A stretch of DNA of 64,000 nt from a virus (IMGVR_UViG_3300027628_000007); one strand, 5' to 3'. Positions 15,432-64,000 are shown, numbered from the stretch's first letter. A program made the numbers and translations. The notes: generated by a model not told the origin, from the sequence alone.

Positions 15432-16496
15432 TTAATTTAATCTGTCGAAAATAAAATCATCATCAGTAATTGGTTTGACATTTACAGTCTTAATGTAACC
15501 ATTTCCCTTTGTAGAGAAGAAATCGTGTGTCTTAGTAGACGTGTTAAGACCGTTTAAAACGATAGGATTAATACGTTTCTCTGGGAATGTATTCTCTAAT
15601 CCTAAGTTCTGTAAAGCTTTGTTTGCATTGTAGTACAAGAAGTCTTTTACTTCATGGTCAAGGTTAATGTCTGCATATACATCTTCTGTATATTTAAACT
15701 CATTACCCATTAACAGATACATCAAGTTGTAAACTTCATTTCTAGCCTTTTCTTTTTCTTCTTCTGTGAATCGCTCAAAGATTTCTTGTGCTAGTTTTCC
15801 AACATAGACACCATGAATGCTCTCATCACGCAAGATAAGATTGATAATCTCACCAGATGCAACCATACGACCTTTACCGTCTTGTGCACCACCACCACCT
15901 GCTAGATACAGTGGGAAGAAGAAACCAGAATAGAATAAGAATGATTCAAGGAATACAGATGCAACCATTGCCATATACAGACTGTAATCATCTGTAATGT
16001 TATCGTAATAGCTTGTGATGATATTGGCTTTGAATTGCAAGTATGGATTCTCTTGCACCCACTCAAACACTTCATCAATCTCTAAACCATTTAACAGAGT
16101 TGTGAAGATTGTAGAATAAGATTTTGCATGAATCTCTTCCATAGTACCCATGAATGAAAGTACCGCTTTACGCTGATTACCTTTGATAAATTCAGCGATA
16201 CGTGGCATACCGATATTACCTTGCTTAGTATCTAATAGAGTCAGACCGCCAAGCACTTTACGATATACTTCTTTCCATTCTGGTGAAAGAGACTTCCACA
16301 CTTTTGCATCCTTTGTAGGTGTAAATTCTGTATCAATCCAAAACTGACTAATGTTTTGTTCCCAGAATTTCTGTGTGAAATCATCTTCTTCTTCATTCCA
16401 GTTCACCGCATCGTGCAAGACTTTTCTCGCACCATGCAGTTTTTCAATTTCTTTTATAAGTTTCTCGTTGCTATATTTCAATGTGTTAAAATCCAT
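15432..16496 (-). CDS. nrdF: ribonucleotide reductase class Ib beta subunit
   Basis: R2 ferritin-like iron ligand pattern, tyrosyl radical region IHAKSYSTIF; follows nrdE. Confidence 0.9.
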   Translation of the reverse strand: MDFNTLKYSNEKLIKEIEKLHGARKVLHDAVNWNEEEDDFTQKFWEQNISQFWIDTEFTPTKDAKVWKSLSPEWKEVYRKVLGGLTLLDTKQGNIGMPRIAEFIKGNQRKAVLSFMGTMEEIHAKSYSTIFTTLLNGLEIDEVFEWVQENPYLQFKANIITSYYDNITDDYSLYMAMVASVFLESFLFYSGFFFPLYLAGGGGAQDGKGRMVASGEIINLILRDESIHGVYVGKLAQEIFERFTEEEKEKARNEVYNLMYLLMGNEFKYTEDVYADINLDHEVKDFLYYNANKALQNLGLENTFPEKRINPIVLNGLNTSTKTHDFFSTKGNGYIKTVNVKPITDDDFIFDRLN

Positions 16497-26374: not shown

Positions 26375-26403
26375 ATTATATCATTATCATTATCTATTGT
26401 CAA
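26375..26403 (-). promoter_or_regulatory. sigmaA-type promoter, perfect TTGACA-17-TATAAT
   Basis: attata tcattatcattatctat tgtcaa; immediately downstream of terminator 26413..26447. Confidence 0.7.
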
Positions 26404-26412
26404 CAGCCTGTT

Positions 26413-48195: not shown

Positions 48196-48465
48196 TTATT
48201 TTTTAACATCTACAATTTCGAATATATCAGTATAGTTGATATTTAATACATCTGCAATTGCATGTGCATACAATAATTTCCAACTTGACTTATTCGACAT
48301 CAAGCTCATAAATCCTTTATATTGCAGGTCTAATCCAAACTTGGTGGAAACCTTGTTATGAAGCTCAATATACTCCATTTTTTGGCTCTCTAAAATCTTA
48401 TGCAACTTCTCTCTATTCAACTTAATATCCTTTTGATGTTCTACCACTCTTGACATTTTCCTCAT
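48196..48465 (-). CDS. putative HTH (XRE-like) DNA-binding protein
   Basis: Weak HTH pattern in ...YKGFMSLMSNKSSWKLLYAHAIADVLNIN. Confidence 0.4.
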   Translation of the reverse strand: MRKMSRVVEHQKDIKLNREKLHKILESQKMEYIELHNKVSTKFGLDLQYKGFMSLMSNKSSWKLLYAHAIADVLNINYTDIFEIVDVKK

Positions 48466-48471
48466 CCTCTC

Positions 48472-49467
48472 TTATTGCGGATATGTTTGTCGAATGTGCT
48501 GTAAATCAAGGAATCCTTTCAGATTGTGATAAGACTTCATATTGTATCGGTCTGCTACAATCTTGATGTCGTCTAAAGACAACTCGTTATTACCTTTGAT
48601 AAGCTCATTCGCAAAGTACATCATACCGCTTCTTTGTACGTATTTAGCTGTAAGCTTATCGAATCCTAAAGCTTCTGCCATATTTTTCATTCTTCTATAT
48701 ACTACGAATTTATCTACTGGTGCATTTAGGCTTTTCTCAATTTTAGTTAAAGAAGCTCTGATTACATAATCATTATTAGCAAGGTCAGTATATTTTCTGA
48801 TTCTGTCCTGTGCAACCATTTCACCATTCTTCTTCATATAAGTTTTTTGAGCAATTGCCCCTTGGATTAATTCTAAAGTTCTGTCGTCAACATCTAAAAA
48901 TCTTTCTGTAAATTTAACTGGAAAACCATTGTCATCTTCTTTTAAAGTATTTACAAGGTGCAGGCGTTTATTTTCAAAATCAACATCTTCTATTTTTAAG
49001 TTGCGGATTTCACTCATTTGTTTACCGCCTACTCCTACAAATGAAAGTCGTAAGATTACTGAATCTTGATAGTTTGCACATCTGTCTTCATATCTTCTAA
49101 GACCTTTTTCAGTAGTATAAACTTCTTCATTTGTCAAATACTTTTCAAAGTCAGTAGGTTTAAGTACAGCTAACACATTCTCTTTAATGTGCCCATGCTT
49201 TACACACCAGTTCAAGTAACTTGAAATGATACGTGCGTAAGTTTCAATGGTATTTCTATTATTGGATTTGAAGTCATACATAACAGTTTCCAATTGACTA
49301 AAAGTAAACAACCTAACATCTTTTTCCAAAGCTTCCTCATGTTTAGCAGTGTATTTAAAGATGCGTTCGTAGCTGAAAACAGTACCTTCATTAATTTCAC
49401 TTAGAAATTGTTCCTTCAATCCATCTTTATCAAATATAGAATTATCATTTGTGTTTGTCATAGTCAT
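48472..49467 (-). CDS. tyrosine-recombinase (integrase)-fold-like protein, divergent
   Basis: SAM-like N-terminal domain; RLSFVGVGGKQMSEIRNLKIEDVDF resembles the integrase Arg-I box; C-terminal KYVQRSG...KSYHN could be the Arg-II/Tyr region. The track start at 49521 is probably too long; the ATG at about 49467 has AGGAGTGG. Confidence 0.4.
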   Translation of the reverse strand: MTMTNTNDNSIFDKDGLKEQFLSEINEGTVFSYERIFKYTAKHEEALEKDVRLFTFSQLETVMYDFKSNNRNTIETYARIISSYLNWCVKHGHIKENVLAVLKPTDFEKYLTNEEVYTTEKGLRRYEDRCANYQDSVILRLSFVGVGGKQMSEIRNLKIEDVDFENKRLHLVNTLKEDDNGFPVKFTERFLDVDDRTLELIQGAIAQKTYMKKNGEMVAQDRIRKYTDLANNDYVIRASLTKIEKSLNAPVDKFVVYRRMKNMAEALGFDKLTAKYVQRSGMMYFANELIKGNNELSLDDIKIVADRYNMKSYHNLKGFLDLQHIRQTYPQ

Positions 49468-49726
49468 CACCAAAACCACTCCTTGTTTTATAAGTCTTAT
49501 TATAGTTATACCCACTCGCAAGGGTTTTTATGCATATAATCATTCGATTAAATTCTAGCAGTTTTGTCGAATCGTGTCAAATGACGTAAAATTGTCTCAA
49601 TTGAGACACTTTTGAGTGGGGTTAAGACTCCATAAAACATGACTTTTATCAAGATTTTCATCTGTCAAAAAGCACCTCTATTGACAGGCTTTTAGAACAT
49701 GACCTCATATGGGCTTTCTGTAGCAA

Positions 49727-55803: not shown

Positions 55804-56253
55804 TTATTTCATCCCCTTTAAAATTGTCTTTGTTTCCATAAGTTCAAAGTATTCGTTCACTGTCAATATATCTCTCAAATCCTCATCGCTTACATTTTCA
55901 TTAATTACAACGCCAACATATCCTACTCCACTTACACTTGACCGTTCTTTTTCAAATTGTCCACTTGTAAAGTGCTCTAGTTCTTTACCATAACCACGTA
56001 CTATGTATCTCTCTTCGTCCTCCCAATCATCACCTCTAACATCTACGTATATAATATGTACTGGCAGTTTGAGCTTATATCTTAGGCAACACATTTCATC
56101 TGGCATTGCGTGGTCGCTCTGACCTTCGTGATACTCTTGATAATGTGGCGACCAATGATATTCATGACCATTTTCACATTTTCTATCTCCACGAAGACAC
56201 TTACAAGTCTGTACGATTCTACCTCCACAAACGATACAACTCATTACATCCAC
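55804..56253 (-). CDS. hypothetical Cys/His-rich protein
   Basis: CIVCGG...CKC...CENGHEYH. Confidence 0.55.
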   Translation of the reverse strand: MDVMSCIVCGGRIVQTCKCLRGDRKCENGHEYHWSPHYQEYHEGQSDHAMPDEMCCLRYKLKLPVHIIYVDVRGDDWEDEERYIVRGYGKELEHFTSGQFEKERSSVSGVGYVGVVINENVSDEDLRDILTVNEYFELMETKTILKGMK

Positions 56254-56279
56254 TCCTTAAATGATTATTATTTGCTTTT

Positions 56280-56308
56280 ATTATAATCTGCTGTCAAAGG
56301 ATTGTCAA
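56280..56308 (-). promoter_or_regulatory. sigmaA-type promoter TTGACA-17-TATAAT with second TGTCAA and ATCTGCTGTCAAAGGAT element in spacer
   Basis: attata atctgctgtcaaaggat tgtcaa. Confidence 0.55.
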
Positions 56309-56363
56309 GTAAATTTAGGAGGGATTTTTCAATCCCTCTATATATTAACCATCCCTTGGCTAT

Positions 56364-56392
56364 AATATACCATTATCTTTTCTCTATGTCAA
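56364..56392 (-). promoter_or_regulatory. sigmaA-type promoter (TTGACA-17-TATATT) at end of nadR
   Basis: Family spacer. Confidence 0.55.
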
Positions 56393-57412
56393 CAAGTTAT
56401 CGACATAATTTATTGCTTTTGTAATTCTTTCGTTGTAATTGCCTTTAATCGTTATGTATTGGACACCCATGTATCTTAACATATACTTTAAATCATCATT
56501 GTTCTGCTCACGCACATGTTGCTCACCGAATGTCCTAGTGCCATCGTCAACCCATTTTACATCTGGCTCTAGGAAAATCCATAGGTCATACTTTTGATTG
56601 TTTGCAATACGTGTTAGAAGTGCATCTCGCTCATTTAAATATGCTTTTAAATAGTATTGCGTAACAATCGCTTCTGTGTCAACAAAGAGCACTTTGTTAG
56701 CATTCTTTAAAGCATTAAATTCATCTACCTTATGTTGGTATGCAATGAGCTGATAATCTTCTGCCATTGTAATGTCTTTACATCCACCTAATTCCTCATA
56801 GAATGTGCGACCATATTCTTCTACGTAATTAGTATTATACAATGTTGCTAGATTTTTGACAAGTGTTGATTTGCCACAAGATTCTGTTCCTACAATAACT
56901 ACTTTTTTAACATAATATCGTCTTACTACTTCTGGTAGAAGCTCCCAATTTTTATAGACACCTTCTGTACGAAGCTTTGTAGCGGATATTGTATACTTTT
57001 CACGATTCGCATCGACTACGACATGTTCTGCATCTGGGTATAACACATTGAAAAACTCTGTGTAAGCATGTTCGGAAGAGAATACGTGAGTGATAGGTTC
57101 ACCCACAGCTTTCTTAATCCCTTCCGCACCTTGCTTCCAACTCTCAATCTTGCCTGTATTCTCTTCGTATACAGCGTGTACATGTACATGGGGCATATCC
57201 TTTGTAATTTCCGTCCACCATCTTACACGTTGTTTATGGTCAACATGTGGAAGGAAACTATCTTTACTAAGCACGTTCTTCTCATAATTCTCATCATATG
57301 AAACTATTACATGTAGCTCATCAACCATTGTTGATGCCATTGTCATTGCAAACACATGACCCATATGTATTGGATAAAACTTTCCACCTAAAAATCCTAC
57401 TGTTTTTGACAT
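56384..57412 (-). CDS. nadR: NadR-like bifunctional NMN adenylyltransferase / ribosylnicotinamide kinase
   Basis: N-terminal GGKFYPIHMGHV (HxGH nucleotidyltransferase, near-identical to the NadR NMNAT motif GKFYPLHTGH); C-terminal Walker A GTESCGKSTL (RNK domain). Confidence 0.85.
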   Translation of the reverse strand: MSKTVGFLGGKFYPIHMGHVFAMTMASTMVDELHVIVSYDENYEKNVLSKDSFLPHVDHKQRVRWWTEITKDMPHVHVHAVYEENTGKIESWKQGAEGIKKAVGEPITHVFSSEHAYTEFFNVLYPDAEHVVVDANREKYTISATKLRTEGVYKNWELLPEVVRRYYVKKVVIVGTESCGKSTLVKNLATLYNTNYVEEYGRTFYEELGGCKDITMAEDYQLIAYQHKVDEFNALKNANKVLFVDTEAIVTQYYLKAYLNERDALLTRIANNQKYDLWIFLEPDVKWVDDGTRTFGEQHVREQNNDDLKYMLRYMGVQYITIKGNYNERITKAINYVDNLLT

Positions 57413-57912
57413 TTCTCTTCCCTCTTTCTTTTATCTTCATGCATTTTTCTAGTATTATCTGCTAAAGTTAACCATTGACAATTGCTAGGCTCATAATCTC
57501 CATCTGCATCAATTCTGTCAATAGACAATCCTTCCTCATATCCATTTTCTATAGCCCATTTGTAAAATGGTTCAAATTTCTGCCATTCATCGCAAACCTT
57601 AATTCCCCTGCCACCATATCGTTCATATCCTGTTATGGTAGGAGTGCTACATCGACCTTTCATTGTAGCCCATAGCTTATAGATTTTAGTCCCATCCATA
57701 CCATGTTTCTTATTTTGTTTACCTATCTTGCTTAGATTTTCTTTTCTTAGGCAACCGCAAGATTGTTGTTTCCCTGTCCTTACATTTCTATATGCAACAT
57801 CCTTTTCGTTACCGCAATCGCACTTGACTCGTACATATCGTTCTTTCTTTCTAACATCTAAAATCTCTATGACAGTTAATCTATTGAATCTGTCACCAAT
57901 TTTTGCTCCCAA
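57397..57912 (-). CDS. homing-endonuclease-like (HNH/AP2-associated) phage protein
   Basis: N-terminal GDRFNRLTVIE...CDCGN...SCGC and C-terminal GLSIDRIDADGDYEPSNCQWLT motifs common in phage HNH/AP2-type HEG proteins. Confidence 0.45.
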   Translation of the reverse strand: MGAKIGDRFNRLTVIEILDVRKKERYVRVKCDCGNEKDVAYRNVRTGKQQSCGCLRKENLSKIGKQNKKHGMDGTKIYKLWATMKGRCSTPTITGYERYGGRGIKVCDEWQKFEPFYKWAIENGYEEGLSIDRIDADGDYEPSNCQWLTLADNTRKMHEDKRKREEKCQKQ

Positions 57913-58653
57913 TTACGCCACCTCATTTTGTTCTTTCGCATTTTTCGACCATTTGATGTAACCATAGATACTGTTGCATAAGTACGCACACCACATAACT
58001 AATACTGTAACATTTCCTCCATCATGCATGAAAGCGTTAAACCATAGAATGATAGTTAAAGTGTTTACTGCAATCCATAACAACCATTGTTCTGCATATC
58101 GTTTAAGCATTAAAAGTTGAGCTGTAATTGATAATGTTACTGCGAATCCATCAATACCTGCTTGCTTACTGCCAATCATATGTAAGAATACACCGTACAA
58201 GATTCCAACCGTTAAAACTGTTAATGCTACGTATAACCAACCTTTTTTTGTTAACTTCTTAGCTTTTACTACTGTATCATTTTCTGTTACTGACTTATTC
58301 TTGCTCCAAACATAGAATCCAATAAATTGCATTGGGAAGTATAAGAAAGCATTTAGCATAAACTCACCATATAGCTGTGCACTGTAAGCTATGTAAGCGT
58401 ATAACGCTGTGTTGATTGCCCCAAAGAAGTAGTTTCCTATTTTTCCTTTGGCTACGAGAACTACGCACAACATACCAGTTAGAGAAGATGCTAGTCCGAT
58501 TAATGTATCATCGAATGCAAAGTACATATAGATAATAAGTGCTGTGAATGATGTTAACCATGTTAATTCGAATGCTGACCAACCTTTTAATAGTGTTTTC
58601 ATAATAATTTCCACCTTTACGTTATTTTTTAAAAAACATGAATATAATTTCAA
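57913..58653 (-). CDS. pnuC: PnuC nicotinamide riboside transporter
   Basis: About 245 aa with 7-8 TM helices and Trp-rich motifs (YFPMQFIGFYVWSKN) typical of PnuC; same operon as nadR. Confidence 0.75.
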   Translation of the reverse strand: MKLYSCFLKNNVKVEIIMKTLLKGWSAFELTWLTSFTALIIYMYFAFDDTLIGLASSLTGMLCVVLVAKGKIGNYFFGAINTALYAYIAYSAQLYGEFMLNAFLYFPMQFIGFYVWSKNKSVTENDTVVKAKKLTKKGWLYVALTVLTVGILYGVFLHMIGSKQAGIDGFAVTLSITAQLLMLKRYAEQWLLWIAVNTLTIILWFNAFMHDGGNVTVLVMWCAYLCNSIYGYIKWSKNAKEQNEVA

Positions 58654-58857
58654 GCATTATACAGAAGATGTCGGCAATTCCTGCAAATATTTCTCCCCAA
58701 CCAGAGGAATCTTTCTTCTTCTTAGTAATCGTAATCACCCTTTCGAAGCTTCTCTTTCACTTTCTTGCGGTCATTCTTCTTCTTTTTCTTTTCATCTGCC
58801 ACAGTTGGTGGTGGCATGACCCCTCTTGATTGAGTCATGACACCAATTGTTTTCTTC

Positions 58858-59106
58858 TTATTTCGCTTCTTTTTCTTTGCCATTGATAGATTCAACTGCC
58901 TTTCTAATTTTCTCTTTACGGAATTTCAACTGCTCTGCAACGAATTGCTCAAATGTGTAAGGCACTGCATCTACTCTCTCTGAAAAGTCAACATGGTTTT
59001 TATACTGTATTGCAAAGTGTTCAACCAATTCGTTTGTAACTACCTCTTTAATGTGCTCACCATTTGCTAATTTGATTTCCATTGTAGTTTTTCCCATTTG
59101 TACCAA
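58858..59106 (-). CDS. hypothetical protein
   Basis: ORF track; perfect promoter upstream. Confidence 0.6.
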   Translation of the reverse strand: MVQMGKTTMEIKLANGEHIKEVVTNELVEHFAIQYKNHVDFSERVDAVPYTFEQFVAEQLKFRKEKIRKAVESINGKEKEAK

Positions 59107-59118
59107 CCTCCGATTTTT

Positions 59119-59147
59119 ATTATATGGTTATCTTTTGTTTTTGTCAA
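59119..59147 (-). promoter_or_regulatory. sigmaA-type promoter, perfect TTGACA-17-TATAAT
   Basis: attata tggttatcttttgtttt tgtcaa. Confidence 0.7.
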
Positions 59148-59157
59148 TATCTTTTTT

Positions 59158-59268
59158 AGCAGGTAGCTTATGTCGATTAATACAATATATATTATATCTT
59201 CTTGTATATCTTTATGTTGTATATATCTTTATATATATTGTTAATTAGTCGATTTAGACTACCTGCTA
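59158..59268. repeat. 11-bp perfect inverted repeat (TTAGCAGGTAG ... CTACCTGCTAA) flanking an AT-rich tract with tandem TGTATAT(A)TCTTTAT units
   Basis: Read from sequence; non-coding. Confidence 0.5.
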
Positions 59269-59274
59269 AATTTA

Positions 59275-59451
59275 CTATTCGTGAATCTCTTCGAAATCTG
59301 TACCGCCACAATCTGGACACTTCTCAATTTTTGCTCTCTGCATGTGGTCACAGTAGTAACCGCAATCCGTACAAGCATGGATTTCAATTGGATTTAATAA
59401 GCTCCCATTTTCGTTTACATCATTTTCATTTGCAAATTCATAGTTTTTCAT
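59275..59451 (-). CDS. small zinc-ribbon protein (58 aa), not in ORF track
   Basis: RBS AAGGGAGAttataacATG; CTDCG...CPDCGG. Confidence 0.45.
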   Translation of the reverse strand: MKNYEFANENDVNENGSLLNPIEIHACTDCGYYCDHMQRAKIEKCPDCGGTDFEEIHE

Positions 59452-59492
59452 GTTATAATCTCCCTTTGTGTTTGTTTTTTGTTTACAAGCTT

Positions 59493-59521
59493 ATTGTAGC
59501 ATGCTACTATTCTGCTGTCAA
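59493..59521 (-). promoter_or_regulatory. palindromic-class promoter: TTGACA(-35 inside ATCTGTTGACAGCAGAAT)-17-TACAAT
   Basis: attgta gcatgctactattctgc tgtcaa; drives small Zn-ribbon gene. Confidence 0.55.
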
Positions 59522-59538
59522 CAGATTATTTATTATTT

Positions 59539-59970
59539 TTATGCTACCATTTTTAATGTGATGATTTCATTATTATACTCATCTTCGCTGTGAATAATAT
59601 CAAAGTCTACTAAATACCGTTTATAGTCAACATATTCATCTGGTATCATAATATTTGTATCATTAACCAAATGACGATACCAAATCCAATCTAATAGCTT
59701 ATTCTGCTCATGAAACTCCTTTCTCGGCTCTGAAATAATTAGAAGACCATCCTGCTTCAATAGACGTTTGAACTCGTTGAATAGTGTAGGCAGGTCTTGT
59801 TCTGGTATGTGATGAATAACGTTGCGACAATGAATCGCTTCGAATGAATGGTCTTTAGCTCCTAAGACCTTGTAGTCCTTTATGTAGTAGTCATAGTTAG
59901 GCGTACCGACAAAATCACTTGTTAAAAATCCTTGTTTTGGCTGTCTTCCAGAGCCGTAATCTAACTTCAT
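59539..59970 (-). CDS. class I SAM-dependent methyltransferase (small)
   Basis: LDYGSGRQ (motif I-like), ...FNEFKRLLKQDGLLIISEP (post-I/II). Confidence 0.55.
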   Translation of the reverse strand: MKLDYGSGRQPKQGFLTSDFVGTPNYDYYIKDYKVLGAKDHSFEAIHCRNVIHHIPEQDLPTLFNEFKRLLKQDGLLIISEPRKEFHEQNKLLDWIWYRHLVNDTNIMIPDEYVDYKRYLVDFDIIHSEDEYNNEIITLKMVA

Positions 59971-59985
59971 TTCAATCTCTCTCCT

Positions 59986-60249
59986 TTAATTCATTTTATA
60001 AGCCTTGCAAACCCAAGGGTAATCTTCATCGCCTTCTTCATCTGAAAAGAAAAGCTCTAACTCTACTATAAATCCATTTTCCATAGTTACAGTTGCTTCA
60101 TAGTAGTTTTGTAGCCAATCACAATCACCTTCATTAACATTTTCTATGCCACCCCATTCACTAGGCAAAGTGTCAAATGAATGCTCAATCGCACCTTCAT
60201 ACATTAAGTGGTTGCCAAAAGTATTCTCATGTACTAGTTCTCTAGCCAT
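59986..60249 (-). CDS. hypothetical protein
   Basis: ORF track. Confidence 0.6.
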   Translation of the reverse strand: MARELVHENTFGNHLMYEGAIEHSFDTLPSEWGGIENVNEGDCDWLQNYYEATVTMENGFIVELELFFSDEEGDEDYPWVCKAYKMN

Positions 60250-60505
60250 TCAAATCATTCCTTCCTCTTGTTACTAATCTTGCACTAGTATCCATATTCC
60301 TTAAATACTCTTTAGCCTTCTCAAATTGCCCATCAGACATCATCAGAGCCTTTCGGCAATCTAATCTACTAAATTCACCATTCAACTCTTCATAAAGTCG
60401 TTGAGCACTTCTCTTTTGGAATTTGCAAGCATAACACAATCCGTCATTCAGCGTGTGTATGATGTAATTCATCGGTGTTTCACAAAACTTACAATTTTCG
60501 CTCAT
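60242..60505 (-). CDS. hypothetical Cys-containing protein
   Basis: ORF track; CKFCE...CYAC. Confidence 0.6.
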   Translation of the reverse strand: MSENCKFCETPMNYIIHTLNDGLCYACKFQKRSAQRLYEELNGEFSRLDCRKALMMSDGQFEKAKEYLRNMDTSARLVTRGRNDLNG

Positions 60506-60527
60506 GTCATCACCTCCTTATGTACTC

Positions 60528-60556
60528 ATATTACCATCATTAAAATCTGCTGTCAA
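60528..60556 (-). promoter_or_regulatory. palindromic-class promoter: -35 inside AATCTGTTGACAGCAGATT, 17 bp, TAATAT
   Basis: atatta ccatcattaaaatctgc tgtcaa cagattt. Confidence 0.55.
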
Positions 60557-60809
60557 CAGATTTATATTTAAATTTTGGTTCTTCTGCAAAATCTCTTAAT
60601 TCTGAATCATAATTAATTACATATGTAAGGGCATCAATCTGTATGCTTAGTGCATTAATCATGCTCATTAAACGAGAATACTCCCTTTTATCTGGGTCTG
60701 ACATTTCAGACCATTTTGAAATAGGATATTTGAATTTATTCGACTCTAAATTGTTTAATTTACTTCTCAATTCTTCACGTTTCTTTAGTATTACATCTAA
60801 TGTTTTCAT
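60540..60809 (-). CDS. hypothetical protein
   Basis: ORF track. Confidence 0.6.
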   Translation of the reverse strand: MKTLDVILKKREELRSKLNNLESNKFKYPISKWSEMSDPDKREYSRLMSMINALSIQIDALTYVINYDSELRDFAEEPKFKYKSVDSRF

Positions 60810-60810
60810 A

Positions 60811-61005
60811 TTACAACCCCTCTTTACCTTTCTTGTACACGTCTAGCTTCTTCACGACCTGCTCACCATGCGTGCCTGTTTGAATTACAGATACAGACAA
60901 CCCAACTGGATAACCTTTCTGTCTAAGAAACTCAAAGATTTCATTTGCTAGTTCTGGATTATGACAATATACAATATCTTCCATATTCGAGAATGGCACT
61001 GCCAT
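60811..61005 (-). CDS. hypothetical protein
   Basis: ORF track. Confidence 0.55.
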   Translation of the reverse strand: MAVPFSNMEDIVYCHNPELANEIFEFLRQKGYPVGLSVSVIQTGTHGEQVVKKLDVYKKGKEGL

Positions 61006-61019
61006 ATGTATTCCTCCCT

Positions 61020-61316
61020 TTATACACCGTATTTTACTGTACTACGTAGTTCCTCTAACGCTTCTTGATTAACCTCTTCACAGTCTTCCAAGTCTCTTAA
61101 TGCTTCCTTTGGAGAATACCCTAATGCAAGACCTTCTTGAAAGGCATCTATAGTCTCTCTATAGGTCATCTTACCCCTTACATCAATAGTATTACTTTTA
61201 CAGCAAACACTACAGCTTTCATGCCAAGTATAATATCTTTTACCGCAATTCTTACATTCCATTTTTCTTCTGAACACTCTCTTTAAAAATTCCAACATAG
61301 CAACCACTCCCACCAT
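61020..61316 (-). CDS. hypothetical zinc-finger protein (CKNCG...CSVCC)
   Basis: ORF track. Confidence 0.6.
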   Translation of the reverse strand: MVGVVAMLEFLKRVFRRKMECKNCGKRYYTWHESCSVCCKSNTIDVRGKMTYRETIDAFQEGLALGYSPKEALRDLEDCEEVNQEALEELRSTVKYGV

Positions 61317-61681
61317 CTTTTTTTCTTCTCTTCTTCTGGCTCAATAATTGGCTCAAATGCATATTTTATATCTGTTCCAAAGTAACATGGCACTATCGCA
61401 ACCACTTTAACCAATCTCCATTTCCAATCCCAACCTAAAGCAATAGTGTCTCCAACTTGTGGATAATCATTAAATTGAGGATACGAGAAGAAAACTGTAT
61501 TCTCGTTGCGGTCAACCCATCCATCGTCTGGATGCGAAGCTTTTACGCCTTGTGAGCGTAAATCTGCTATCCATTGTCTTTTATTTTGCTCCATTTCATC
61601 ACCAATTTTATTCCAATGATGAATCCATTCTGCGTTATTACTTTCGCAATAACCGTCTTTGCTCTTATAATCATACGCCAT
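61283..61681 (-). CDS. hypothetical protein
   Basis: ORF track; conserved leader GGGGTGATAGTATG. Confidence 0.6.
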   Translation of the reverse strand: MAYDYKSKDGYCESNNAEWIHHWNKIGDEMEQNKRQWIADLRSQGVKASHPDDGWVDRNENTVFFSYPQFNDYPQVGDTIALGWDWKWRLVKVVAIVPCYFGTDIKYAFEPIIEPEEEKKKRWWEWLLCWNF

Positions 61682-61708
61682 ACTATCACCCCTTATAAAA
61701 TTGAGTTT

Positions 61709-61858
61709 TTATCTATTGACTTTATGATAATCTTCTGCTATTTCATACAGCTTAATCATATCACCAACTGTACTTGCAGTCCTGTCATACCATACAACTT
61801 CATTATACTTATTACACCAATCTGCATCGCACATCATACCAATTTTAGTTTCGTACAT
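61709..61858 (-). CDS. small hypothetical protein (about 49 aa), not in ORF track
   Basis: RBS GAGAGAGGttctATG. Coordinates approximate. Confidence 0.35.
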   Translation of the reverse strand: MYETKIGMMCDADWCNKYNEVVWYDRTASTVGDMIKLYEIAEDYHKVNR

Positions 61859-62042
61859 AGAAACCTCTCTCATGCTATCACCCTTTCATAAAAGTAAACT
61901 TTTATCTTGTAATTTTATCTCCAATTAAACTAATTGTATATAAAATTACTAAAACACCAACTAGAATATATATTGGTAAATCATGCTCTAAATACTTAAA
62001 ATAATCCACTATTTAATCACCTCATAAAAGTAAAATTTTATC

Positions 62043-62216
62043 CTACTCTACAAATTCCCTTTTATTTATGCTTAAAATTACGCTATCATCTGTATCTGCA
62101 CCAATTTCTATTTCATGGTCTTCTGTCAATATAGTTACGCCATATGGCTGAATATCAACACTCTCAATCTTTTCTCTGTTAAGGATATTTTTTAGCTCTT
62201 TCTCTTCATAATTCAT
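62043..62216 (-). CDS. small hypothetical protein (57 aa), not in ORF track
   Basis: Leader GAAAGGGTGATAGTATG shared with neighbouring genes. Confidence 0.4.
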   Translation of the reverse strand: MNYEEKELKNILNREKIESVDIQPYGVTILTEDHEIEIGADTDDSVILSINKREFVE

Positions 62217-62228
62217 ACTATCACCCTT

Positions 62229-62426
62229 TCATCTCTTCTTTAATCCGTCTGGCTTGAATTTCAATTTCTCATCATCATTCAAATAATGCTTAAATCCTCC
62301 CTTGTAATAAAGGCAAATGTTGCCTGCCTTTGTTACACTATAAGCAACAGGAATTAACCTTTCTTTCTGCATATGATATTCCTCACCCTGTAATCTCTTC
62401 ATATTATCATTTCCTAATCCATCCAA
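62229..62426 (-). CDS. hypothetical protein
   Basis: ORF track. Confidence 0.55.
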   Translation of the reverse strand: MDGLGNDNMKRLQGEEYHMQKERLIPVAYSVTKAGNICLYYKGGFKHYLNDDEKLKFKPDGLKKR

Positions 62427-62647
62427 TGTATCACTGCAAACTTTCCATTATGCTTTGTAGTAGGATTATACAATTCTTCCTGTACCTTTTCATAATTGTT
62501 GAAGTTATCCGTTTCATCAATGACTACATCTATACCTCCCCATTCTTTCTTTACCTGCTCAATATTATTATCTGTAATGGTTTCTATGTAGTATCTCATA
62601 TGGTTGTTTGTAAACAGTATAACCACCTTTTTATCCATACCTCTCAT
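62414..62647 (-). CDS. hypothetical protein
   Basis: ORF track. Confidence 0.55.
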   Translation of the reverse strand: MRGMDKKVVILFTNNHMRYYIETITDNNIEQVKKEWGGIDVVIDETDNFNNYEKVQEELYNPTTKHNGKFAVIHWMD

Positions 62648-62814
62648 ACTATCTCCCCCTTGCGTACCATTCTCTAAATGGATTTTGACTTAAAACTACT
62701 AACCCACCATCTTTAAATCTAACAATCAATTCGCCTGCATGACTTATTTTAACCTCCTTTACTTCTCTATTCTCCATTAACTCTTTAATTCCCTCTATTT
62801 TAGACTTATCCATA

Positions 62815-63246
62815 TCAACCCTCCTTAATCTCTCTTAAATCCTCTTCTAGCGTTTCTACAGCGTATTCAAGTCTATCATTATGTACTTTATGTAAGGCAT
62901 CGTCAACATAGCCTTCAAATCGTTCATAAGCATTGATAATTCTTTTAAATTTATTTGCATTAGTTTCTGTAAATTTAGCCATTGCCAACAATCCTCTTCG
63001 ACTAAATGTTTCAGCACTGAATAGCACGCACTTTCCTAATATTCCTTTGATATCTTCGCTTGTATAGAAGTGGTGGTAAGACTTGTTAAATTCGTAAAGC
63101 TCATGCGGTTGAGGATGAATTTCTGGTCGATTCTTTAATACTACCATTTCCCCATTAACCATAACAGCTCCAAAGCTTACAACATCTATCAACATTTTAT
63201 TTGGTAAAGACCATCTAAGTTCTTGTACTAACTCTTCTCTATTCAT
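62815..63246 (-). CDS. hypothetical protein
   Basis: ORF track. Confidence 0.6.
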   Translation of the reverse strand: MNREELVQELRWSLPNKMLIDVVSFGAVMVNGEMVVLKNRPEIHPQPHELYEFNKSYHHFYTSEDIKGILGKCVLFSAETFSRRGLLAMAKFTETNANKFKRIINAYERFEGYVDDALHKVHNDRLEYAVETLEEDLREIKEG

Positions 63247-63476
63247 TTTAACCCCTCCACTAATCCTTTTATTTTTAAGATTTGCTCCTTTGTGTAACCC
63301 CTTGAATCCCTTAGGTTTAATGAGCCACCCATACTTTTGTAAACAGGAAGCCCAACCTTCTTTAGCTTATTGTATACTTCTTCGCTCAATCCATATGTGT
63401 CAGAGATTCTATACTTTCCGCTCATCGCCTTATAAACTACGAGTTTCATATTAACTCCCCCTTTAAAGCATACCAT
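63243..63476 (-). CDS. hypothetical protein
   Basis: ORF track. Confidence 0.55.
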   Translation of the reverse strand: MVCFKGGVNMKLVVYKAMSGKYRISDTYGLSEEVYNKLKKVGLPVYKSMGGSLNLRDSRGYTKEQILKIKGLVEGLK

Positions 63477-63624
63477 ATTTTACAAGATTTTGCCCCTTCA
63501 TCATAGCAATTCTTGCAGTTTTGTAGAATACTTCCAATTCATTTTCTGTAAGCTTGCGACCTAGTTCTGCTTCTACTTTTTCAAGTGTCTTATTCTTTAT
63601 TGTAGTGTATTCGTAGATATCCAT
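63463..63624 (-). CDS. small hypothetical protein (53 aa), not in ORF track
   Basis: RBS AAGGAGttgagcgaATG. Confidence 0.4.
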   Translation of the reverse strand: MDIYEYTTIKNKTLEKVEAELGRKLTENELEVFYKTARIAMMKGQNLVKYGML

Positions 63625-63670
63625 TCGCTCAACTCCTTGTTAAAATTAAGATTTTATTAACTATAATCCT

Positions 63671-63699
63671 ATTATAAACCCTTAATTATCTGCTGTCAA
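63671..63699 (-). promoter_or_regulatory. palindromic-class promoter: -35 inside ATCTGTTGACAGCAGAT, 17 bp, TATAAT
   Basis: attata aacccttaattatctgc tgtcaa cagatttt. Confidence 0.6.
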
Positions 63700-63705
63700 C
63701 AGATT

Positions 63706-63870
63706 TTATACTATTTTTACATGCCATTTACTTACTTCCCAAACTTCGTAATCATCATCTCTTACGTATAAAATTTGACCTCCTACTAAAATATCAACAA
63801 CCAAACCTTCTTTACGCCCCTCATCCGTAGGGAACTCAACTCTTGTTTCAAATACTTCAAACTCCATATC
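63706..63870 (-). CDS. small hypothetical protein; start moved to the ATG with perfect RBS (AGGAGGAAtagatATG)
   Basis: The track start at 63918 lacks an RBS; the internal M (MEFEVFETRV...) has AGGAGG. Confidence 0.5.
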   Translation of the reverse strand, partial: DMEFEVFETRVEFPTDEGRKEGLVVDILVGGQILYVRDDDYEVWEVSKWHVKIV

Positions 63871-63878
63871 TATTCCTC

Positions 63879-64000
63879 CTATAAGCTCATTTGGTCTACA
63901 TGACCGCATTGTGTGCATTTAATACTGATTTCGTCTGGATGTGTCTGCTTGGCTTCAAAATAACCCATATGATGGCGATTAATAGTGTCTGCAAACAACA
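63879..64000 (-). CDS. hypothetical zinc-ribbon protein, 5-prime end truncated by window edge
   Basis: Open frame from the edge to the TAG at 63879: ...EISIKCTQCGHVDQMSL. Confidence 0.4.
   Translation of the reverse strand, partial: LFADTINRHHMGYFEAKQTHPDEISIKCTQCGHVDQMSL

Follow-up and report, generated by a model that had tools for sequence, protein, structure and literature searches.

The DNA described here is a 64,000-nucleotide stretch of the virus genome IMGVR_UViG_3300027628_000007 (the whole stretch is called the window), and the element under study is a short palindrome built around the -35 hexamer of a subset of its promoters. The window has a G+C content of ∼35% and a strongly negative GC skew, and almost all of its genes are encoded on the minus strand. 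In megablast comparisons the region 56000-64000 showed 88% identity to Bacillus phage Kirov with 58% of the region covered, and ∼84-85% identity to the phages PBC2, Thrax1 and Thrax3. These four phages are siphoviruses of 160-170 kb of the Bacillus cereus group, belong to the subfamily Andregratiavirinae and have been called "Tyroviruses" (PMC9703825). Based on this identity, the window is assigned to a close relative of Kirov, a ∼165-kb temperate-type Tyrovirus siphovirus. Positions 56245-63881 correspond to positions 136788-144986 of Kirov, and the window therefore stops ∼20 kb before the right end of the phage. The promoters that carry the palindrome precede operons of tiny orphan genes adjoining this genome end.

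A search of the window with the 19-mer AATCTGCTGTCAACAGATT, allowing up to 3 mismatches, gave 5 matches at 4 sites, compared with an expectation of 0.02 from 100 shuffles (largest value 1). The sites, called A to D in the order of increasing coordinates (Table), have 2, 1, 0, and 1 mismatches to this sequence, respectively. Four copies had already been reported in the initial annotation, with coordinates that were 1-4 nt off and an otherwise accurate description. Its term "near-perfect inverted repeat" is correct in that symmetry around TTGACA was found, but the symmetry is imperfect. Read on the minus strand, which is the sense of the genes, the copies follow the pattern (A/T)ATCTGTTGACAGCAGA(T/A)(T/A). 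The conserved unit is the 15-mer TCTGTTGACAGCAGA with the core TCTG-TTGACAG-CAGA, in which the bases on either side of the central A are complementary at six of seven pairs, T5:G11 being the mismatch. The two-fold symmetry, with half-site centers ∼10 bp apart, extends to eight of nine pairs in copy C. At sites B, C, and D, an exact TTGACA is followed after a 17-bp spacer by TACAAT, TAATAT, and TATAAT, respectively, giving predicted sigma-A promoters, and a Shine-Dalgarno sequence and the start codon of a small open reading frame (ORF) are located 25-50 nt downstream. Judged by hexamers, spacing and gene position, these three copies are complete sigma-A-type promoters.

At site A the dyad copy is located within the spacer of a promoter, and this arrangement recurs in Kirov and in three relatives from IMG/VR, i.e., in five genomes including the window. 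The corresponding site behind the NadR gene in PBC2 and Thrax1 is an ordinary promoter of the dyad class (TCTC-TTGACA-GCAGA, 12 bp, TAAACT). From this comparison, the spacer-embedded form in the window, Kirov and the three IMG/VR contigs is read as a remodelled version of the PBC2/Thrax1 promoter. Directly behind the NadR-like gene and before promoter A, a hairpin AGGGATT-gaaa-AATCCCT (56320-56337, minus strand) was observed. Kirov, PBC2, and Thrax1 share this hairpin, which probably terminates the NadR/PnuC operon.

Table. Dyad copies, promoter elements and related genes in the window (whole-window positions).
Feature	Position	Strand	Remarks
Dyad copy D, gene sense AATCTGTTGACAGCAGATA	63687-63705	minus	Core 63689-63703; -35 TTGACA 63694-63699; core invariant in Kirov and Thrax1 orthologues
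-10 TATAAT of promoter D	63671-63676	minus	17 bp after the -35; 12/12 match
First ORF of the small-gene operon of promoter D	63463-63624	minus	
Dyad copy C, AATCTGTTGACAGCAGATT	60544-60562	minus	Best palindrome, 19 bp, 8/9 pairs; core 60546-60560; -35 60551-60556
-10 TAATAT of promoter C, preceded by TGg	60528-60533	minus	First gene 60242-60505
Dyad copy B, AATCTGTTGACAGCAGAAT	59509-59527	minus	Core 59511-59525; -35 59516-59521
-10 TACAAT of promoter B, preceded by TGc	59493-59498	minus	First gene 59275-59451
Dyad copy A, AATCCTTTGACAGCAGATT	56285-56303	minus	Left arm degenerate (TCCT); its TTGACA lacks a usable -10 and does not serve as -35
Promoter A: TTGACA 56303-56308, 17-bp spacer holding dyad copy A, TATAAT 56280-56285	56280-56308	minus	12/12 match
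Gene downstream of promoter A	55804-56244	minus	
Hybrid site, partial dyad GCTGTTGACAATAGA on a class-1 promoter (26403)	26393-26407	minus	Partial right arm ATAGA and class-1 spacer block
MrpR/YopR-family protein, recombinase fold	48472-49461	minus	Pfam MrpR_N_CB 8.7e-22 (78 bits, cut-off 27)
89-residue protein, predicted XRE/Cro-type helix-turn-helix fold	48196-48465	minus	Candidate binder only; just downstream of the MrpR homologue

In whole genomes of relatives, the 15-mer (up to 2 mismatches) was found 17 times in Kirov, 16 times in Thrax1 and 11 times in PBC2, in the latter two in equivalent regions. Fourteen of the Kirov copies are clean promoters located from 139.5 to 162.1 kb; of the remaining three, one is the spacer copy (136845) and two are hybrids (106126 and 149947). 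Except for the hybrid at 106.1 kb, all of them (16/17) lie within 136.8-162.1 kb, on both divergent small-gene arms and always in the orientation of the genes. The initial annotation had placed the dyad class in front of the small genes at the high-coordinate end of the window, and the distribution in Kirov confirms that it is confined to this end and the region beyond it. When the copies of the window, Kirov, PBC2, and Thrax1 were pooled, all 48 were located at promoters and 46 had a -10 hexamer 16-18 bp downstream; the two copies lacking their own -10 represent the orthologous spacer-embedded copy. A scan of IMG/VR gave 62 matches, and only three contigs carried several copies, these being close uncultured relatives with the same sites.

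When orthologous promoters were compared between the window, Kirov, PBC2, and Thrax1, positions -4 to +10 around TTGACA were invariant, the following 7-12 spacer bases were mostly different, and even the -10 hexamer varied (TACAAT, TAAGAT, TATACT). The cores of copies B and C are invariant in all three relatives, with a differing spacer and -10 in the case of B. Arms that vary while the hexamers stay had been named beforehand as evidence against a regulatory site; instead, the arms were found to be conserved like the -35 hexamer and more than the -10. The contrast between the invariant core and the varying spacer and -10, together with the copy kept within a spacer, indicates that the arms are under selection apart from the hexamers.

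A neutral listing of TTGACA-N16-18-TATAAT sites in the window revealed a second group, called class 1, of 25 minus-strand promoters between 5531 and 59147 (among them 12995, 15030, 19320, 40389, 47694, and 59147). They share the spacer TTGACA-nnnnC-AAAAGATAATGA-TATAAT, which includes an extended -10 of the form TGn. Phages of the Kirov group and of the Tsamsa group (see below) have this class-1 spacer block in common, and phage FADO has the variant AATGATAyAAATAATGA. The palindrome promoters are without this block and form a distinct subclass, as had been proposed. Weaker versions of the palindrome had also been listed at 26397, 37315, and 52190; these sites exist, but they are class-1 promoters (spacer AAAGATAATGA) that share only the CTG before the hexamer. 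The sequence CTGTCAACAG with 1 mismatch was mildly enriched in the window (9 matches vs. 3.5 expected). The dyad covers ∼-39 to -25 and the class-1 block ∼-25 to -13, so that the two elements abut. Both are present in the Kirov hybrids at 106126 and 149947, the former of which reads TCTGTTGACAATAGA and is the orthologue of the hybrid site of the window.

The TCTG..CAGA copies are absent from six Joanripponvirinae (Tsamsa, Izhevsk, Nate, Sophrita, pW2, and C30-3; the Tsamsa group), and in their homologous small-gene region the promoters have the form aaT(T/C)(G/T)C-TTGACA-A(G/A)AGAa, with TCTCTTGACAAGAGA as a perfect palindrome. In Bacillus subtilis phage FADO the form is AAT(C/A)CG-TTGACA-ACG(G/T)ATT, with AATCCGTTGACAACGGATT as a perfect 19-bp palindrome, and in Bacillus cohnii phage vB_BcoS-136 (BcoS-136) it is aATCTG-TTGACA-A(a/t)AGAT. 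Thus, four lineages keep a dyad around the same center with the arm pairs TCTG/CAGA (Kirov), TC(G/T)C/(G/A)AGA (Tsamsa), T(C/A)CG/CG(G/T)A (FADO), and TCTG/wAGA (BcoS-136). The half-sites are TCTGyTG in the Kirov group, TCkCTTG in the Tsamsa group and TmCGTTG in FADO; in BcoS-136 the left half is TCTGTTG and the right half is degenerate. All four lineages have TC/GA on the outside and the built-in TTG/CAA on the inside, positions 3-4 being lineage-specific. At pair 4:12 the Tsamsa group has C:G where the Kirov group and FADO have G:C, and at pair 3:13 the Kirov group has T:A and FADO has C:G. Exceptions are pair 3:13 of the Tsamsa group, which is G:A, and pair 4:12 of BcoS-136, which is never complementary. 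When non-class-1 promoters were picked by their hexamers alone and the five free pairs were scored, 3.2-3.7 of 5 pairs were complementary in every lineage, compared with 1.7 in the class-1 controls of the two large groups.

Phages of the Kirov type and of the Tsamsa type have been isolated on the same species, B. cereus and Bacillus anthracis. Since the arms differ between phages of the same hosts, neither a host protein nor the host polymerase can determine the specificity by itself, and these sequences point to a specificity that is phage-borne. A scan for a host factor with the 15-mer against 185,579 reference genomes was uninformative: among the matches listed there were single chance matches in unrelated taxa and none in Bacillus. 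Known Bacillus sites (LexA/DinR, CcpA, CodY, Spo0A, CtsR, and TnrA, and an IHF-like WATCAANNNNTTR on the opposite strand) were considered and rejected, being absent or failing in the Tsamsa-group form.

The data establish the motif itself, its location in promoters, the part of the genome to which it is confined, its degree of conservation and a symmetry that is specific to each lineage; from these, we infer that a protein binds to the dyad and that it represses. With moderate confidence, the element is interpreted as an operator for a phage-encoded dimeric repressor, embedded in the promoter and centered at ∼-32. The proposed operator is a dyad of 15-19 bp with the consensus AATC-NN-TTG-A-CAR-NN-GATT, the center of which is the fourth base of the sigma-A -35 hexamer. 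The underlying promoters are of the consensus type for host RNA polymerase and would need no activator. A phage-encoded dimeric DNA-binding protein would occupy two half-sites of 7-9 bp, TCTG(T/C)TG in this phage, and the bound dimer would block sigma region 4 from the -35 box. If the -10 hexamer is taken at -12 to -7 with a 17-bp spacer, the center of the dyad is found at ∼-32, and a protein bound there would be in competition with sigma region 4. All of the small-gene operons (3-4 in the window and ∼16 per genome) would thereby be silenced together, which could take place in the prophage state or after the first infection phase. The two variable bases per half-site, which differ by lineage, would give each lineage its own repressor-operator specificity and thus create immunity groups. 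The initial annotation had suggested the operator of a repressor or of a class-II activator, and of these the repressor is the best-supported reading. Class-II activators bind near -41.5, usually at promoters with a weak -35 hexamer, whereas here the center is ∼-32 and the -35 is a perfect consensus.

Several observations weigh against this interpretation. The symmetry is incomplete: position 11 of the Kirov group is G and not the symmetric A, the commonest Tsamsa form TCGC..AAAGA has 3 of 5 free pairs with many sites showing G:A at 3:13 and C:A at 4:12, and pair 4:12 of BcoS-136 is never complementary. The class-1 controls of FADO and BcoS-136, which consist of only 2 and 4 promoters, also reached 3.0 of 5 pairs. 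Since the lineages are related, the common outer TC..GA could reflect inheritance and not selection. An operator does not account for the long, site-specific arm extensions seen in a few copies of the Kirov group. A Pfam scan of 30 proteins, comprising the first genes after the window promoters, lineage-conserved early-region proteins, annotated helix-turn-helix (HTH) proteins and the Kirov plus-strand arm, gave only sub-threshold matches and no significant domain, and did not identify the dyad binder. In the one small HTH-fold candidate of the window (see below), the putative recognition helix (YKGFMSLxSN) does not change between lineages although their arms do. Finally, the motif never occurs away from a promoter, and an extended recognition element of RNA polymerase explains this distribution equally well.

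According to the latter explanation, the arms would be read by the alpha C-terminal domain and sigma region 4 of the polymerase, contacting the two sides of the -35, or by a phage protein riding on it, and would confer a distinct strength or timing on this promoter set, similar to sigma appropriation. This is consistent with the finding that every copy belongs to a promoter with a properly spaced -10, that an A-rich AAT at -42 to -40 falls where the proximal UP-element subsite would be, that the right arm is sometimes better kept than the left (GATG..GCAGA at Kirov 158312, TCGT..GCAGA at 162089, and only the right half at 16369), and that no separate binder was found among the proteins scanned with Pfam. 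However, hexamers and spacing are already consensus and need no helper, and to our knowledge bases -29 to -25 are normally not read sequence-specifically by a sigma-70-type holoenzyme. In addition, the host polymerase cannot account for arms that differ between phages of the same host, one-sided contacts give no obvious reason for a symmetry kept with different bases in four lineages, and the spacer-embedded copy cannot serve as a -35. An extended promoter element is therefore considered unlikely. Even less probable is that the arms have no function of their own and that one promoter cassette was spread by duplication and recombination through the fast-evolving small-gene region and homogenized within each lineage, as has been proposed for the promoter/stem-loop cassettes of T4-type phages. 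The copies are indeed concentrated where gene turnover is high, their flanks are A/T-rich and similar, and the lineage-specific forms resemble concerted evolution. Yet homology between paralogues ends abruptly at the 15-19 bp core with unrelated adjoining spacers, a tract of 15 bp is too short for efficient homologous gene conversion, orthologous cores are invariant while the -10 drifts, and neutral spread does not predict symmetry in each of three different arm sets.

The palindrome might also act as a nucleic-acid structure, either as an RNA hairpin in read-through transcripts, where it would be a processing site, a 3' stabilizer or a weak terminator for transcripts of the upstream gene, or as a DNA cruciform that modulates the promoter. 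Site-specific arm extensions of 11-17 bp were observed at PBC2 L068:24259 (L068:24240-24282), Kirov 149551 (L002:5531-5573; equivalent to PBC2 29119 and Thrax1 32642), PBC2 L068:27323, and Kirov 152658, whereas none of the class-1 promoters (n = 124) had an extension of >4 pairs. Two of the extended sites were folded and gave -17.4 (PBC2 L068:24259) and -15.6 kcal/mol (Kirov 149551) with z-scores of ∼-5.5 to -5.9, and copies were found directly after the stop codon of the preceding gene. The window copies, in contrast, fold weakly (-4.9 to -6.7 kcal/mol, z -0.35 to -1.66), and the spacer copy does not fold. The stems have no U-tract, a terminator scan was negative at these sites, and most copies, including all of those in the Tsamsa group, lack extended arms; possibly the long extensions are secondary and result from template-switch perfection of an existing quasi-palindrome. 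Permuting the right arms among promoters of one lineage did not lower the pairing, which indicates that there is no site-by-site compensation, and no compensatory covariation was found within any lineage. In FADO the half-site variants combine freely and mostly in a non-complementary way (TCCG with CGTA, TACG with CGGA), the commonest combinations being non-complementary at 2:14. The free combination of half-sites, the lack of compensation, the weak folds and the missing U-tract and terminator thus favor two protein half-sites over a stem, and we regard a structural role as very improbable.

The initial annotation had proposed to look for a small HTH or dimeric DNA-binding protein, and one HTH-fold candidate is present in the window, but no convincing dyad binder was found. 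The candidate is the 89-residue protein listed in the Table. Its structural model has a predicted local distance difference test (pLDDT) score of 73.8 and its top matches are VanUg, TP901-1 CI, CylR2, and 434 Cro, with a best E-value of 7.5e-3 and a template modeling (TM) score of 0.58. Small XRE/Cro repressors such as CylR2, 434 Cro, and TP901-1 CI use inverted repeats of 14-22 bp with half-site centers about one helical turn apart, which is similar to the dyad, and the 89-residue protein has the same predicted fold, albeit by a weak match. Its size would suit the dyad and its invariant helix fits poorly, so that on the basis of the model it is a weak candidate. A weak ribbon-helix-helix (RHH)/ParD match of Kirov_243 (E-value 0.0045) was rejected, as this protein is acidic and not lineage-specific.

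The gene next to this candidate (48472-49461) gave, in addition to the match in the Table, matches to Pfam MrpR_C_cat (5.9e-12, 46 bits, cut-off 27) and to MrpR in the Protein Data Bank (8a0a, 2.5e-19). Its homologues in Kirov, Thrax, PBC2, and Tsamsa are annotated as Xer-type tyrosine recombinase/integrase (PMC9703825), and it is one of the three recombinases behind the name "Tyroviruses." By these matches, the gene annotated as a recombinase is identified as a homologue of the MrpR/YopR-family master repressor. Such homologues are present in all these phages, and more distant ones in Geobacillus E3, Clostridium c-st and SPbeta-like phages. The promoter of the operon containing the MrpR homologue (49552-49580, minus strand) belongs to neither class and has TTCGACA in its spacer (49565-49571), which is the reverse complement of the Spo0A-box-like TGTCGAA. 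This heptamer is kept in Kirov, Tsamsa, Izhevsk, Nate, Sophrita, pW2, and C30-3, the rest of the spacer being different, and may link expression of the repressor to sporulation signaling.

The master repressor of Bacillus subtilis phage SPbeta is MrpR, whose binding site is the 15-bp element SPBRE present at ∼10 promoters; the element was predicted in silico and binding of MrpR, which was reported to elute as a monomer, was demonstrated 24 years later (PMC10516654). As derived here from seven SPBc2 promoters, SPBRE is an asymmetric A-rich spacer block near the -10, (T)AGACA-aatac-AAAAAATATGTA-TATAAT. The two systems are alike in that a large temperate Bacillus siphovirus carries an element of ∼15 bp at ∼10-16 sigma-A promoters of early or regulatory operons, and in that the window phage encodes a protein of the MrpR family. 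They differ in that SPBRE is asymmetric and located in the spacer, whereas the dyad is symmetric, lies on the -35 and is unrelated in sequence. The class-1 block AAAGATAATGA is a better counterpart of SPBRE than the dyad, as it has a like position and agrees with it in 8 of 12 sequence positions. By analogy, the MrpR homologue more likely binds the class-1 spacer block than the dyad, and with the MrpR homologue as the class-1 regulator the dyad would need a second protein. The MrpR homologue itself was judged unlikely as the dyad binder, SPBRE being an asymmetric spacer block. A dyad of 15 bp is also small for two monomers of the recombinase fold.

Tsamsa is recorded as temperate (PMC4113786), and a plasmid-prophage module is present in the phage group (PMC10454425; PMC9703825). 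With a temperate group, such a module and a repressor of the MrpR family in the window, silencing through multiple operators is to be expected. A megablast search of PLSDB with 24 kb of the window found no plasmid-prophage relatives. As a tentative and more doubtful extension of the operator interpretation, the promoters could follow a code of two keys on identical sigma-A hexamers, in which the spacer block would be used by the MrpR-like repressor of the recombinase fold and the -35 dyad by a second dimer, and in which a switch of the inner bases in each lineage would have divided phages with common hosts into heteroimmune groups. The two elements adjoin but do not overlap and, as the hybrid sequences suggest, can be combined on one promoter.

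Repressor sites over the -35 hexamer and repeated families of operators in temperate phages and plasmids are classical. In mycobacteriophage L5, gp71 uses many copies of one short site per genome, the primary operator overlaps the TTGACA -35 hexamer of the early promoter, and the stoperators are asymmetric 13-mers that lie mostly inside transcription units and are orientation-dependent. The site studied here differs from the stoperators, as it is symmetric and confined to promoters in all 48 copies. The C1 operators of P1, the conserved inverted repeats of phiC31 and the KorA/KorB operators of RK2 are further cases in which one regulator serves many scattered promoters. Those of phiC31 and RK2 resemble the dyad in being inverted repeats of about its size, and all three systems are different in sequence, host and protein; we know of none among them whose sites are as a rule centered precisely on a consensus -35. 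No relevant paper mentions the motif strings, and the genome papers of Kirov and the Tyroviruses contain no promoter or repressor analysis. According to the available literature, the sequence, its exact centering on the -35, the lineage-specific switching of the arms and the coexistence with an SPBRE-like class have not been described.

The small-gene region of the relatives includes a Ser/Thr kinase, MazG, and an Ocr-like anti-restriction protein, and this gene content suggests early or host-takeover functions. The class-1 promoters have an equally good sigma-A consensus and are interspersed in the same region in the Tsamsa group. In Tsamsa (L193:3892) and Izhevsk (L194:5230), the Ocr-like gene is preceded by a promoter of the class-1 type and not by a dyad promoter. 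An Ocr-like anti-restriction gene is expected among the first genes expressed, and therefore the two classes are not simply "early" and "later." The dyad promoters had been proposed to mark a temporally distinct set of genes (immediate-early or shut-off-controlled); the data do not support this timing, and it is safer to call these genes "separately regulated."

As an operator, the dyad would define a regulon of ∼16 operons of small genes without known function, which are probably host-takeover or defense-related, and the regulator could be sought directly with a 19-bp bait. Combined with the MrpR homologue and the SPBRE-like class, the dyad would indicate a full silencing apparatus of the lysogeny type. 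Some phages of this kind have been proposed for food biocontrol or anthrax work, and the lineage-specific arms would predict mutual immunity between phages, which would be useful for the design of cocktails.

The first genes after three of the dyad promoters (59275-59451, 60242-60505, and 55804-56244) encode very small proteins with cysteine pairs. The product of 59275-59451 has weak zinc-ribbon matches, and those of 60242-60505 and 55804-56244 begin with MSENCKFCE... and MSCIVCGG..., respectively.

Outside of the small-gene region, a right-half-only copy, TTGACAGCAGAT, was observed at Kirov 16369 (L003:16364-16419) with an 18-bp spacer and TATAAT in front of a plasmid-type replication initiator gene. 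It stands back to back with the class-1 promoter of the HTH regulator gene Kirov_24, and both lie inside a ParM/ParG/relaxase/Xer module. Between the divergent small-gene arms of Kirov, a gene-free stretch of 1.4 kb (156.9-158.3 kb; L002:12860-14300) contains many repeats of the AAGTAAGTAA type ∼54-56 bp apart, CACGCACGCA repeats and a duplicated unit of 62 bp, and may be an origin or a partition/packaging-type site.

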